This document shows positions 13,831 to 61,504 of a DNA stretch of 64,000 nucleotides, one piece after another (the stretch's first letter is position 1; each line of letters starts with the position of its first letter). Made by a program: the position numbers and the translations under genes. This DNA comes from Ruditapes philippinarum. Lineage: Eukaryota. The notes beneath the pieces were generated by a model that saw only the letters and a program-made list of their open reading frames with translations, was not told the DNA's origin and searched no databases. The DNA is taken from the NCBI RefSeq assembly GCF_026571515.1, contig NW_026852123.1, positions 310,001-374,000 on the forward strand, given 5' to 3'.

Positions 13831-15391
13831 TAATTTATGAAATAACACACACTTTCGGGTTTTTTTTTATGTACAACAGGGAAAAATGCAGGTCATGTTA
13901 TAATTTTTTAACACAATACTGTTGAAAATATAATCATAAAAATATCACGATTGCAATGTGCATATATTTGACAGAAATGCGTTTATTTTCTTACTTTTAA
14001 AAAGCATTCTGAACAAATTTTTAAATCTTTTGAAACGAATATAAATGATTCACTTAAGAAAAAATATCGTTCTCAGTGGTGTTTATCGGCTATTTAACAG
14101 TTTTGATGCGTAGGAATCGACCAATAAGGCCGAGGGCCTGAATGGTTGATTTGCTTGCATCAAAACGATAAATACCGATGTTACATAGCCGATAAATACC
14201 CCTCATACCGATATTATTTCGATTCTTACAGAACAAAATAAGGGAAATCACTAACGTTGTTTTTTTTTTCAAGCAGAGATAACTTCTGCTGCCGATTTTC
14301 GTAAAACGCTACTCTAGTCTCACCCAACAGTCTCTAATGTATAAACATATTGAACAAAATAAATAATAAGAAAAGACAAAGTTAATTAAACGTGCGTCTC
14401 TTAAAGACAAACATTGGAATTTACATTTATAAATGTGTTATCTTTTCTTCCGATTGTAATTATTTCCACTCACACACCCCAAACCGACCACCGCCCTTTT
14501 TTATCCCCTTTATCTTAAAAGTATGCGTACGCAAAGATACATAGATCACCGTTCCATGGTTCATAAAGAAATTTATATATTTCCAGTAAAGGATCCATAG
14601 TGGGCTGGCCCAGCTCTGAATCTTGAACAATTCATCCAATGTTTAAAAGATGTCGATGTACAAAATATGAATATTAAGCAACCAACAGTTTACCGCCTGG
14701 TCTGTCTACATGGAATTGCAGGGATCATTCAATTTCCAGATTTTTGTCTGCTCTATACTGTTGACCTTTGGTTTTATTTTCCGAAGAATTAAATATATCT
14801 CCAACGTGCAGTATGATAAGAATAAAGCACGATGATTCAATCACTTCTCATATCACACTAAAATGCATTATATTAATTTTGTTGTGTTAATGAATTACCA
14901 CTTAAGCGTACAGAAACTTTAAAAAATGATTATAGTTTGTCAATGATAGGGTGTAAAGAATTATAGAGTGTATTTTATTATACAGTTTTTGTCTTTCAGG
15001 ACCATTCAAGCCTTTTGTTGTTTTTTTAAAGAAACAACTTTTTCTTTAACATGATATATAATTTTTGCATAATAAAAAATGTGACTAAGGATTACCTCTG
15101 TATAACACTTTGGTAATAAGATGATTTCAATGATCAGTTCAGTGTTTAGTCGACTGTCGCCGCATAGTTTTCAATATGACAGATGTTGATTTTGTCAACA
15201 AGGATAGTAACAATATCAATACACTTAAAGTTAAGCTGAGTGGAAAAAAGCTGAGTGGAAATGTTGTATATATCGTTAAAGATCAACAACACGCCTTAGC
15301 TTTTTATCTAACTTGCGATATATGGCCAAAACATCCGGCCAGAATTCAACAATAAATTTTAATTTGATGTTATCATTAGGACCGACGACAA

Positions 15392-53998: not shown

Positions 53999-56100
53999 TC
54001 ACGATTTCTTAAACGCATGAAAGATCTGTCCACATGAAATACAGCACGGGTCAACACAGCACGATAGAATGATGGAATAACATTTCCTGTAATAGTGGCA
54101 GTTGATCTCTAGAGCTTTAAGAAATGGTGTAAACTGCCAGACATGGTTGAATGCAATGGATGCGAATTCACTCCCAGCTGCGCGGCAATACAGCACCCGC
54201 AGAACAGTGTTAGCATCTTGTAACAACATCCCTTCCAGCACTCAAAGCACGAGTAAGATAATCTCCAAACACAGTCTATACTCTGTACGCCTTCCGGTTC
54301 CGCCAGAACATCCTCAAATGCGCACTAAAAATAGAACAGTGTATAGTTTCAAGTTTTTATTTTTGAGAACAACATAGTTTTTACAAAATAACACTAGTGC
54401 AAACGATCAAAGATTATCATAGTTTTTCAGAAGATTATAAATTTAACAATTTATGTTGACAAGAATTTTTATGTATTTTATTTTTTATGGTATAGATCAG
54501 TCCTGCTTCGGCGCCATATGACCTTAATTGTGTGGTGCGCCGTAAAACCAAACAAAACAAATATATACATGATGTACTAGCACCCAGTTTCAATTAAAAA
54601 GGTTATAATTTCAGAGTTCATTAACGGCGACATTGACACATTACTGGTCACACCGCGCCGAACACTGTAAAACGTAGGCCTAAAAATCTTAATTTCAAGT
54701 TTTTCGGAAGTTTACAGTATTATTTTACAAAACTAGTAAATTCGTACTAGCCGATTTTTTAACGAAAGAAATGAATGCTACTTTTTCTCATTTTGGTATT
54801 CTATATGTATACGAAAATCTGAATAAACTGTGGTTCATCACAACAAAATAACCTGAAAATTGCAGGCCCTGTTTAATTGAGTCTGTGCATGAGGGATAAT
54901 GAATAAGTGCAACATCACTCACGCCTCATGCACCTGAATACACCACTTCGAAACCCCTTTCATTATACTAACATCTTAGTTGGATCCAAACAATGCAAGG
55001 ACCGAAACCAAACGCCGGTCCCTATATTGTTGAAAGCCATCCGTGATGTGTACTTTTTTGGTTAAAGTCGCCCAATATATATGGTCTTGAATAAGCTGAT
55101 ATATTATATACAAAACTTGCAGACAATAGTTTATCATAATTTTTACACAAATAAATAAGTTTATTACTATAGAAAAAGAAAAATGAACTGACCCCATAAT
55201 AAAAAATGGTAAAAGCTTATTAAAATTGGCCAATTCTTGTCAAAATCAAAAGAATCCCAAAATATGCAGATTGCATCCGGTATTTCTATTTCTATGCTTG
55301 CTCGTTTCCAAATATATTTTTACAAAATGGCCAGATGAAACTAAAAACTGAAAGTACATGATACCGAAAATTTAACGCCGATTTTGACTATAACATTTTA
55401 TTTATCTATTGTTAAATAAAGAGTTGTTAGTCTAATTCAACTGCTCCAAATGATTGTTTACTTTCTTTCTTTTGATTTTTGATATCAGATTGTGTATGTC
55501 CACTTTGCATCCATTTTACTTTTTCATAAATACTTTTTTAAAGATGTCTCGAGGATTCTCTGTTTATACTCATTTCTAAGATATATAATATTTGTTTATA
55601 ACCTGTAGTGTAGCAACTCAAAAGAATTTATTTATGTAGATATTTTAGGAAGAAAAAAAGAGATATCTTTTTTAAACATTTTTTTAAGATACTGACATTT
55701 TTATTGATGATTTTATTTCAAAACAATTTTGAGCTTAGTGCAAAACCATATTTTGTAAAACATTTTGTAAAAATGATATTCGAACAATCCTTTAAATTGT
55801 CGATCAATATTAAAATTATTTTTTTCGAAATTTTGAGATACGATAAGTTACAAAAATAGGATAGCCTTGTTATATGCGTTTGTACGTTAATTGGTAAATG
55901 AAGCGTTAAAAGTTTTACCATGTAATTGTCAAAAGGATCGACATTTATTTGTTTAGCTATAAGTTTTCTAAAATCGTGTACTTTGTTAAATCAGAATAAT
56001 TGAGCAAATATTTGACAAGTTAAGTAATGTTTAACCAACAACAAACCTGTATATGACTGTTTATACAATTTGGATCTCTGTTAATTAGGTCTACCGACAT
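53999..56100 (-). pseudogene. Caveolin with a 1-nt frameshift; exons 56100-56047, 54324-53999
   Basis: MSVDLINRDPNCINSHIQ|CAFEDVLAEPEGVQSIDCVW...CIAAQLG[-1 nt at ~54171]EFASIAFNHVW...IFHAFKKS*. The exon is 326 nt versus 327 in its neighbour; could be an assembly error. Confidence 0.75.
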
Positions 56101-57318
56101 TTTTTCGATTTCTGAAATAAAATCCTTAAGATTTGTCCAAAAACAAGCTACTTAAAAGTCCAACCGATCACCAATGAGTTATTTCAAAAACTGACTTTAT
56201 TCCGTTGATATTGAAAAATATCTCAAGACAAGATTGTTCAAACATTTCTTATCAGTAAGTTTTATATACTGGCATTCGCAATTTTCAATCAAGTATATTT
56301 CCTACATACCAAATACCCCCCCCCCACCGTCTTACTCTTATCACCCCGTTTTAAGTGGGTAAGTGGATTGGTACGTACACATCAAACTATCTCACTTTAA
56401 TAAAAATTGTGATAAATTTGGTCTAAAATTTACGATTTTATTAGATGGGTACTATTTATTGGTTTGACATCATATTTTTTTGTTTAAAAATGTTTAACGT
56501 ATCTTTAAATTGTCACAATTTGATTGGATTGATGAAATATATGTGCTTAGAGTAATATAAGAACATTATTTCGTTTATTAATATTTCACTATGGGTTGCC
56601 CTTACTCAAAAACATTCCAACATCTCTTTATTTCTTAACAATACTCGTCTGCCAATAAACTAATTTATAAAAAAAACTAGTCACTAGTTGTCATTTTTAT
56701 ATGAAATTGTTTATTGTCTATCCATGGCTACAAAAGCTTCAAACAAATAAATCAGTCAATGTTGTTTAAAAATAACGAACATGTTTCTATTATTTTTAAA
56801 ATTTAAACCTATGTAAAGAATTTTAAATATTAAAATCTGTATTATACCATTACAATCATTTTCATATGATAGGTTTAAATATCTTATAATAACAATATTC
56901 AAAAATGAAAACATTGACAGCGAAACCTTTTATTAATACAAACATTAGTGCCATCGATCCATTAGTATTTCTATTCATTAAGCCAACTTGTACAAGTGTC
57001 AACAGAAGTTGCAACCAAATTGTTTGGACAGCGTTTAAGCCTCACTATATTTTCATAAGCGGCTGGTAATTGAGCAGCTATGAACTTTAAACATAATTGT
57101 AGTATTTGAACATATTTACATACTCCTTTTTGTTTGCTTTCTCACTTAAACGCTTGTTTGAGCAATACGGTTTCTTGCTGTAGCCATTGTTACCGTAGAA
57201 ACGGTATACGGGTATATAACTGGCGGTGTGTAGGGGCTTGCTACCAGAGCTTTGACAGCCCAGTCCGGCAACTCACGTGAATATTTAGCAAAGTCTGTGA
57301 TAGATTTAAAAAGTCAAA

Positions 57319-58959
57319 ATGGCTGATTCTCTCGATCTCATTAACCGTGATCCAAACAACATCAACAATCATTTGCAAGTAAGTATTTTACAAGGTTTTT
57401 TTTTTAATAAAATAACATTTCATAAGAATTTATCAAATTGAAAACAAAATGTATATTTTTGCTTTTAATGTTTAAGAAAAAATACATTATCTATAAGAAC
57501 GTTTTTCTTATATTTTTTGCGGATAACATATTTGGCTACTTTATAAAAACTACATAATAAGAAAATGATTTTATTTCTTAATTTTAGTTTTATTACAAAT
57601 GTGGAAATCCTTAAGTTATTAAGCACAAATTTATGCTGAAACATCTGTAAAGAAAACATTTTTTGCAACAATATTTCAAGTCTAGATTTTATACGATATG
57701 AAATACATATTGATAAAAGCATGATTTACTAACATTTGTATATGTTGCCTAACATTAAAAGTAGCTTAGAACCTTTTTACGACTCATACTATTATTTTAT
57801 TTATTATTATCATTATTATTAATTTATTTACTATTATTTTAAAATCTATAAAGAAAATTTATTTTGATTATAACATGTTAAAATGTACTCTTTCTAGCAA
57901 GAACCTATATATCTCTAATGCTATATAATTTAATACTTTATCATAAAGAAAAAAGAAATATAGACTAGTATTTATTTTGAGTATTGACTAACAATAATGC
58001 TGCCTAACATAGCTTTTTTTCGTCATTTTCTTCACGAATTTAATTTTGATCATTCTCATTGAAAGAATCATAGAAATATTTGAATTACAATCATAAAATC
58101 TTAACAATTTTCGATCTTTAAAAAACACAGCAAATACAAATGGATTTAAGTGAACACAAAAATGGATATTCGACGGATTTTAAACCATTCGTAGGATTTT
58201 AATTTTCACTTCGAAAATGGATTTATAACTGTGTTTTAATTCTTTGTATGGTTTTCGGTCTCACTTTTAGTTTATCATTTCACAGTTATAATAATTTAAT
58301 TTCGAAAGGACATTAGATTTAACAACATTATAGCAAACCAAGTTAAGCTCCTGGAAAGTATTCCTTCTCTAGAAAATTTTCAAAGGTAAGATACCATTTG
58401 ATCTTTATCCGTGGTCTGAACAAGCATGTGGTAAATATCTATTAATTGGATGAATTTTAAAAGTGTTAAGCTTTCAAAACTTCTAACATCGTAAAGGATT
58501 TGTTTTACGACTATCATCCTAACACAAATTCTCATAGGAAAAGCCTAGATGTAGATAGATAGTTTGGCCAATAGAATAGTTGTTAAAATGAAGTGTTCTT
58601 TTTAAATCATCATATTTGTAATACGCATTTTGCAGTGCAATTTTGAAGATGTATTTGCCGAGCCCGAAGGTACCCACAGTATTGACTGCGTTTGGAAACT
58701 CTCCTACACTTGCTTTAACTTATGGAAAGGCATCTGTTATAAGATTGCTACAATCCTCTGTGGAATATGCATTGCGGCTGAATGGGGTTGTGACTTTGCT
58801 CTAGTTTCTTTCTACCACATCTGGTGCTTCACACCCATCTTCAAGATGTTGGATATCAACTGCGGATGTGCCAAGAAGTTCTACATCCAGTGTGTTAGCT
58901 GTTGCATCGAGCCTTGCTGTATGGCATGCGGTCAGCTCTTCCACAATTTTAAGAAATAA
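57319..58959 (+). CDS. CAV: Caveolin, Cys-rich short-C-terminus type, 127 aa; exons 57319-57378, 58636-58959
   Basis: MADSLDLINRDPNNINNHLQ|gtaagt..tttgcag|CNFEDVFAEPEGTHSIDCVW...LFHNFKK*. Confidence 0.93.
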
Positions 58960-59324
58960 CTTTATACAAATTGTGACAGACTTTGTTAACATTGCCGAAA
59001 TTTTCGTTCTAACTTCCTATTCATGTACTATATTTCGTACACATTTCGTCATAGGGATATGAAATTCGTCGATATATATTGGACTTAAGATACATGCAAT
59101 AACACCAACAATGCATGCATGATGGATTTATTTTTTTAAAGATGGACTAAAACACCGTGGATAAGGCACAACCTTTTGTTTGAAATGAAGACTTTAAATG
59201 TCTGAATCATCAAAGGGTAAATTTCTGTGATATGAGAAAATGAATTAATATAGTTTATTTATTAAATCAAATTTGTTTAATTGTTTGTTTTGCTTCATAA
59301 TTCTGCTTCCAGATATATTGCATT

Positions 59325-59480
59325 TTTGTACCGCTTATAGGTATTTGCTTCATTATTTCGCTTATAGGTGCATGGATTCATTATTTCGCTTATTAGAAAA
59401 TGGATTAAGCACTCGCATTTATGAAAATGATTATTTTATCATGCTTGTAAGTACACTGCTTCAGTATTTCGCTTATAGGT
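59325..59480. repeat. Short degenerate tandem repeat (ttcattatttcgcttataggt)
   Basis: About four degenerate copies. Confidence 0.6.
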
Positions 59481-60716
59481 AAAGAAAATATTTCATAATA
59501 CTGAAATCACGATGAACCATCATCCAGTCTTGTTGGAAAAGCAGAAGGTCATCTTTTTGCAATAACTTTTCCCTTTTTGGCTGTTCATATATTCATTTGC
59601 GTTTAATATAGCCAATTACACTTATTCTTTGAAAAGGCTCTTTGATGCTATTGTCTGACTTGTGTAATAGGCAAAGGATATATTACATTTAAATGCTATA
59701 AAATCATTGATAAATTAAGAATTCATGTGTTATAAAATCATTGGTGAATTAAGAATACAATACAAATTGTAATCAGTCATATTATTCGCCGTTTTTTTAT
59801 GCATTCTGTATAATGTAATAATTTATTACACTATTTCTAAAACAACGGTGTACTAGTAATAAAAAATATTATCCCTAAAAATAACAGTAGATAAAAAATT
59901 TAAATAGCGCTTTACGAAGTTACTTATAAAGCCATTTTTGCATTGGTCTGAAATATCTTAATTCTCAAAATGAAGAAATCTCTTCAGTTCAAATACATAT
60001 TGATGTATCGAAGAATATTCATATGCAGAGACAACTTGTAAATAAGTAACTTCTTGGTTGAATACATTAAATCATATGAAGTAACTGAATTAATTTATAG
60101 TTTATCATTTTCACTCAAATGAACAAATTATACATTAAGCCGAGGATTGTTAGGAAATTATATAGATACACTATTTAGCAAGCAGCCAGTACAAAATGTT
60201 ATCATTCAACATGTCATGCAATTTAAAAAATACTGAAATTGACAAGGAGAAAAAAGGAGAAGACAATGTGTGAGTATGAAAATTTTATTTGTTCATAGTA
60301 TTAACACAATTGTAAGTGATACCAGCACAGCTACTCAAATACTTACAAAAACTTATAGCTTGAGTTTGAATGCTTTTATTTCGCTTTTTATATATCATCG
60401 CATATAGCTGTTTATGTAATATTTCTTTTATTGCTTGAATGTCCATGTGATTTTTGCTTTTTTATGTTGCGTTTCGCTTTTAGCCATACTGCTTTCATAC
60501 TTTGATATATAGCTTTTTACGTATAAACTGTTATGGTTTTGCTTTCCAAATATTTCTAACAGTGGATACAGAATACTGTTTGAATAAACGGTGATAACAA
60601 GTTAAGTTGCTTAAATCATTCGCTTCTGCAGAAAATTGCTATATACATGTATATATTTAATTGAGTCTGTAAAATGATGTTGATGCGTTATCAATTGTTC
60701 ACTTTTTTATCTACAG

Positions 60717-61040
60717 TGCTGCTTTGAAGATGTCCTGGCTGAACCTGAAGGTACCCACAGTATTGACTGTGTGTGGAAACTCTCCTACAGTTGCTTCAAC
60801 ATGTGGAAAAGCTGCTGTTATAAGCTGTCAACAATACTCTGTGGCATATGCATTGCGGCTGAATGGGGATGTGACTTTGCGGCTGCTTCCTTCTACCACA
60901 TCTGGTGCTTCACACCAATGTTTAAGATGTTGGACATCAACTGTGGATGCATGAAAAAGATGTACACTCAATGTGTCGCCTGTTGCATCGAGCCTTGCTG
61001 TATTGCATGTGGTCAACTCTTCCATCACTTTAAGAAATAA
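60717..61040 (+). CDS. CAV: Intact caveolin core exon lacking its own NRDP first exon; candidate alternative last exon of the 57319 gene
   Basis: ttttttatctacag|CCFEDVLAEPEGTHSIDCVWKLSYSCF...LFHHFKK*; 324 nt, same length and phase as 58636-58959. Confidence 0.85.
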   Translation, partial: CCFEDVLAEPEGTHSIDCVWKLSYSCFNMWKSCCYKLSTILCGICIAAEWGCDFAAASFYHIWCFTPMFKMLDINCGCMKKMYTQCVACCIEPCCIACGQLFHHFKK

Positions 61041-61504
61041 AGAAAACTGTGTTAGAATAATAACGACTAACTGTGATAAAATATATATCATTAAACTGTT
61101 CGGATAATAAAATCAAAAATGAAAACATAAAAACGAAATAAAAATAACAGTATGAAGAACAGTCGAATGTTTTATATAAAATGTGATATACAATATGAAA
61201 CGGTTTTAGATATTAAATATATTTATAAACATGCATGTTGTAGGGTTTAAATGTTTCTGTTGAATGTTCAGTCATAACGGGTTTTATCATTTTAATTGCA
61301 CGGTAGTAAATTCTATAATATGCTCAAATAAATTTGTTTCTTTTATATGTAGCTTTGTTTGGTTGTTAATTTGTTTATTTGTTTGTTTTTGTTTGTATAT
61401 GAAAACTATAGTATATACAGTCTCAGTCTCAATCACATTAAATGAAATAATGTAAACTCTACTTGTTGATTTTAAATAAATACTGGACCCTTACAAGATT
61501 CAAA

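Follow-up and report, generated by a model that had tools for sequence, protein, structure and literature searches.

A Ruditapes philippinarum caveolin gene with one first exon and two homologous core exons as candidate alternative termini

Introduction

The window analyzed here, a stretch of 64,000 nucleotides from Ruditapes philippinarum (RefSeq assembly GCF_026571515.1, contig NW_026852123.1, positions 310,001 to 374,000), contains a caveolin locus in which one short coding exon (exon 1) is followed by two core exons, a proximal one (A) and a distal one (B). This arrangement raises the question of whether exon 1 can be joined to either core, so that a single gene would specify two caveolins. 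The initial annotation, made from the sequence only, proposed that it can. Other readings are that A is a retired exon, that A and B act as two genes, or that the second core is an artefact of the assembly.

Results

Gene layout and encoded proteins

The coordinates, frames and stops given in the initial annotation were borne out (Table 1). Exon 1 is followed by two cores of equal length and phase, each of 324 nt, preceded by CAG, open for 107 codons and closed by TAA, so that two homologous, same-phase terminal coding exons stand in tandem behind one upstream exon. The absence of an NRDP-type exon between the cores held as well: searched with an HMM of 101 exon-1 peptides, the interval between A and B gave no match reaching 3 bits, against 22-44 bits for clear exon-1 copies. 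Because the next core in the 3' direction (window coordinate 65752) has its own exon 1 at 65047, the unit at this locus consists of one exon 1 and two cores. Over the 170 kb mapped (window coordinates -10,000 to 160,000, which take in the window and 12 of 15 neighbouring caveolin loci) there are 29 exon-1 copies and 31 core exons; 27 of these cores have their own exon 1 with no core intervening, and B is among the four lacking one. The 3' UTR of the B form carries AATAAA at 61106, 61137 and 61327, and a further copy at 61036 overlaps the B stop.

Table 1. Features of the caveolin gene (window coordinates).
Feature	Position	Strand	Remarks
5' UTR of exon 1	57022..57318	+	start approximate; contigs start at 57022 (X6) and 57083 (X7) and cannot reveal the true start
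Shared coding exon 1	57319..57378	+	ATG..CAA, 20 codons, phase 0; GTAAGT donor, spliced at 57378
Intron of the major form	57379..60716	+	3,338 nt, GT..AG, holds exon A; joint 57378->60717 in X6 and X7 contigs
Caveolin core exon A, proximal	58636..58959	+	107 codons + TAA; probably a minor alternative last exon
ATTAAA, nearest poly(A)-signal-like hexamer 3' of A	59261..59266	+	candidate, from hexamer scan
Caveolin core exon B, distal	60717..61040	+	107 codons + TAA; terminal exon of the major form
3' UTR of the B form	61041..61343	+	X7 contig ends at 61343, X6 contigs end at 61287

Both cores match the Pfam Caveolin family (PF01146) at 107 bits (A) and 103 bits (B), well above the curated cut-off of 25. 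Exon 1 + A and exon 1 + B each encode 127 residues with a common N-terminus, and the exchanged exon accounts for 107 of them (84%). Identity between A and B is 84% at the protein level (17 of 107 residues differ) and 83% at the DNA level. The signature motif, scaffolding domain and spoke region of the clam cores can be aligned to CAV1 (phmmer to 7SC0), and exon 1 aligns to the pin-motif region of human CAV1, the pin motif being residues 49-60 (PMC9094659); structural elements of caveolins are also laid out in PMC12330381. When CAV1 numbering is taken as core position + 65 (from the alignment to 7SC0) and domain boundaries are those in PMC9094659, two A/B differences would lie in the signature motif region (CAV1 67 and 72), four in the scaffolding domain (90-98), five in the intramembrane domain (102-133) and six in the spoke region (144-169). 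Of the differences that the initial annotation placed in the scaffolding and membrane segments, the serine of "KSCC" in B (core position 32) is allelic: in run X7, 60810 A>G changes it to glycine, as in A.

Exon 1 is spliced to core B

Four of 24 listed sequencing runs were examined (X6, X7, X21 and X23), of which two were informative, X6 from study P3 and X7 from study P4, both presumed to be RNA. The junction between positions 57378 and 60717 that the initial annotation had predicted was found spliced, with GT..AG borders, in one assembled contig of each (depth 150 in X6 and 395 in X7). The shorter side of the joint spans at least 255 letters in these contigs, which extend into the 3' UTR; exon 1 is thus joined to the distal core and the proximal one is skipped. 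Besides A, no copy of B above 75% protein identity was present among 36 genome matches, in an assembly that may be incomplete. Given this and the canonical splice, the joint is unlikely to derive from a retrocopy.

The corresponding joint between exon 1 and A (57378->58636) was absent from the four runs, two of them informative. Exon A itself is covered at a depth of 3.5 over 58804-59146 in X6 and 4.9 over 58401-59012 in X7, always unspliced and at about 1-2% of the depth of the B contigs. The X7 contig reads straight through the A acceptor and may represent pre-mRNA or DNA. X21 gave 47 reads at the locus with no joint of any kind, and X23 gave none. The contigs joining exon 1 to B show no break at 57378, so that any A branch was absent or below the assembly threshold. 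In both informative runs, exon use looked strongly skewed to B. Expression is poorly gauged by contig depth, and rare forms are lost in assembly; the data thus show exon 1->B to be present and apparently dominant, and they do not imply that exon 1->A is absent.

Signals around the two cores differ in the same direction. When acceptors were scored with a leave-one-out matrix over the 30 cores having an AG, that of A reached 4.4 bits (third lowest of 30) and that of B 9.2 bits (seventh highest). Within 500 nt of the stop there are four AATAAA hexamers for B and none for A, where the first lies at 59858. Since six of the 31 cores have no AATAAA inside 500 nt, the hexamer argument is weak on its own.

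Exon A has been maintained by selection

The substitution rates that the initial annotation had singled out as informative were dN 0.101 and dS 0.782 between A and B (NG86), giving a dN/dS of 0.13, which indicates purifying selection. In neutral-drift simulations at 0.39 or 0.2 substitutions per site, none of 5000 exons each remained stop-free with 17 or fewer changes; the fraction rose to 4.8% at 0.1, 46% at 0.05 and 74% at 0.02. Terminal branch lengths are similar (A 0.083, B 0.088). The substitution pattern shows that A is not a decayed copy and has been under long purifying selection. Taken together with the simulations, it indicates that both copies were constrained and that A was selected through most of its history, a result still compatible with a very recent loss of function, since recent retirement would leave no trace.

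The RefSeq pipeline normally gives several isoforms for a gene only when there is transcript support. The RefSeq protein XP_060595815.1, a computed model named "caveolin-3-like isoform X1" from R. philippinarum, equals exon 1 + A letter for letter, and its label implies a second annotated form at the locus. No sister isoform or exon 1 + B protein record appeared among the members listed for 20 protein clusters, some of which were judged by name alone, and the bare cores A and B had no exact match in the protein collection. The record of the Mercenaria orthologue bears no isoform label.

Alternative explanations

The strongest competitor is that A is dormant or recently retired, formerly functional but with exon 1 now joined only to B and the RefSeq model derived from homology or stray reads. 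It would account for the unseen exon 1->A joint, for the faint and unspliced coverage of A and for its weak acceptor. Silencing within the range of drift that leaves A intact in 46-74% of simulations (0.02-0.05) would be undetectable, and the cluster does contain decayed pieces, such as an exon 1 at 15176 with no core of its own and the core at 1021, which contains a stop and lacks the AG. Against it, RefSeq attaches an "isoform X1" label to exon 1 + A. In both X6 and X7, moreover, and thus in two studies, intronic coverage is concentrated on A and its flanks (58804-59146 and 58401-59012) rather than spread over the intron. The negative splice result comes from just two informative runs in which rare forms would be lost from contigs. 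We regard retirement of A as unlikely.

It is considerably less probable that A and B function as two genes, one of them also having its own promoter and first exon (e.g., 60196/60211-60269). An ATG and a GTGAGT donor do occur within 60196-60275, the 7-nt word TTTAGCA is also present in two of 24 exon-1 leaders, and in X7 and X21 coverage of the intron directly before A is low. However, the strong donor is in phase 2, out of frame with B, and a phase-0 cut would need GTGTGA; there is no in-frame ATG before the A acceptor. The candidate at 60196-60269 has no homology to exon 1, its alignment score of 21 being matched by 144 of 200 shuffles. Depth over 60120-60280 was zero in all four runs, which agrees with the initial annotation in not placing B behind a local first exon at 60211-60267. 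For the same reasons (unsupported alignment, no HMM match, no coverage) we rejected a reading of 60196-60269 as a degenerate first exon of B.

That the second core arose from two haplotypes assembled in tandem is very hard to sustain, even for a fragmented assembly (15,874 contigs) of a polymorphic species, because A and B differ by a dS of 0.78 with flanks that cannot be aligned, allelic differences in B amount to only about 3% (17 in 623), and X6 and X7 each contain A as well as B sequence.

Origin of the two cores

The initial annotation took a short intronic match near 58268 and 60098 as a sign that only the 3' part of the gene had been duplicated. The 13-mer is real but attributable to chance, as words of at least 13 nt are common to 82 of 300 shuffled pairs and to 53 of 258 real, unrelated window pairs; it was discarded as a duplication scar. 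A 40-nt intronic match (58339-58378 vs 60598-60637) lies upstream of A and of B and could be a duplication remnant or a common element. It exceeds all of 200 shuffles of 300-nt windows, yet is equalled in 19 of 60 shuffles of the whole intervals. The flanks of A and B otherwise gave no convincing alignment, as expected at a dS of 0.78, and with flanks that cannot be aligned, duplication of the 3' exon alone and duplication of the whole gene followed by loss of the B exon 1 are indistinguishable. The pair may have originated in either way.

Core trees were built with 46 and with 21 sequences, near-identical paralogues and more distant molluscan matches being excluded. In both, B groups with the Mercenaria protein P0050 (support 93/79 and 90/87, unstarred); the AU test does not reject a tree uniting A and B (p-AU 0.456). 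Mercenaria P0050, which was compared as protein only, has an exon 1 of the same type, identical at 19 of 20 residues, and a B-like core.

The surrounding caveolin cluster

About 30 two-exon caveolin genes lie on both strands of the contig between ~303,000 and ~458,000. At the left end of the cluster (contig 303860-315206, window coordinates -6141 to 5206), exon-1 copies at -6141 and -4748 are followed by four cores at -300, 1021 (containing a stop and lacking an AG acceptor), 2968 and 4889, with no exon 1 among them. The cores at -300 and 2968 are close (dS 0.11, dN/dS 0.18). Judged by its layout, this end is probably a larger candidate for mixing of first and last exons.

Other members are less regular. 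A diverged orphan exon 1 (15176-15230, plus strand) scores 7 bits, reads NKDS for NRDP and has no same-strand core before the next gene. The minus-strand core at 54005-54324, whose exon 1 is at 56100, carries one frameshift near residue 51; the similar Mercenaria protein P0071 is intact, and the clam core is a pseudogene or contains an assembly indel. First exons at 56100 (minus) and 57319 (plus) diverge 1.2 kb apart and possibly have a common promoter region; a TATA-like word occurs near 57214, downstream of the plus-strand contig starts (57022-57083).

Many named caveolin paralogues are found in Mya, Dreissena, Patella, scallops and oysters too. A metagenome scan yielded one locus, on a marine contig (L016:5051-5416), with a caveolin match to residues 6-127 that is uninterrupted by an intron and is uninformative on exon layout.

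Discussion

The initial annotation envisaged alternative terminal exons yielding two caveolins from one promoter. The splice of exon 1 to B, the selection on A and the RefSeq model of exon 1 + A agree with this proposal, whereas the joint of exon 1 to A was not seen. We consider it likely that this is one gene in which exon 1 is joined by default to B, and A serves as a minor or condition-specific alternative last exon.

Under such a scheme, a transcript cut and polyadenylated after A would have its exon 1 spliced to A. In most cases the polymerase would read past A, and B, with its strong acceptor and several AATAAA hexamers, would win. Read-through to B is the expected default because the A acceptor is weak and no AATAAA lies within 500 nt. 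Two terminal exons would thus compete, with termination after A as the exception. Both proteins would carry the same pin-motif segment, and up to 17 differences could tune the rim and the membrane face of the caveolin disc.

If A is used, the gene would be a compact case in which gene duplicates have become splice isoforms that exchange 84% of the protein, and would offer a natural caveolin pair predicted to differ in just signature-motif, scaffolding, intramembrane and spoke residues. The locus also brings into view a clam cluster of about 30 caveolin genes. Isoforms of CAV1 differ at the N-terminus and are not known to swap the core. The element of surprise is modest, since mechanisms of this class are familiar and an isoform model for the locus is already present in RefSeq. 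The papers listed in our literature search, drawn mostly from outside subscription journals, include none on this locus, on exon mixing in clam caveolins or on the cluster as such.

As every member consists of a phase-0 exon 1 and one core exon, it is conceivable, and we raise it tentatively, that clam caveolin clusters are in part combinatorial cassettes in which first exons combine with cores of what used to be separate genes. First-exon by core combinations would be 1x2 at the present locus, up to 2x3 in the left-end group of this cluster, 2x2 in Dreissena and 2x1 in Mya, the last three being annotation models or sequence layouts rather than read-level evidence. In Dreissena polymorpha (XP_052250578, -585 and -592 for X1, X2 and X3), X2 and X3 have the same N-terminus, with 17 residue differences between their cores, and the core of X3 recurs in X1. 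In Mya arenaria (XP_052780907 and -908), X1 and X2 combine one core with two N-termini. The Dreissena cores group with Mya P0004, apart from A and B, so that these mixing events are not orthologous.

Compared with human caveolin-1 (PDB 7SC0; PMC9094659), the clam protein is short (127 aa) and Cys-rich, and has no long N-terminal region. It stops near CAV1 172, so that, unlike in human CAV1, the beta-strand segment is mostly missing or short.

Duplication of 3' coding exons, with alternative poly(A) use yielding homologous C-termini, is known from 77 human cases, GNAO1 among them (PMC8373072). The tropomyosin 3' exons of TPM1, Tm1 and lev-11 belong to the same class (PMC8373072 and PMC9741552), and PMC9741552 describes independent origins of such duplications across metazoa. 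Strict mutual exclusion of internal exons, as in Dscam or Mhc, does not describe the clam gene, in which A and B each have their own stop and B continues into the 3' UTR; in PMC8373072, terminal swaps likewise fall outside the strict mutually exclusive definition. The clam gene resembles the class outlined in PMC8373072 in having homologous 3' coding exons in tandem, of which, in that class, one is included per transcript by poly(A) choice and both are conserved; use of the proximal exon is here suggested by the RefSeq model and not seen in reads. It differs from the class in that 84% of the protein is swapped and in that its neighbours in the cluster are otherwise independent paralogues of two exons each.
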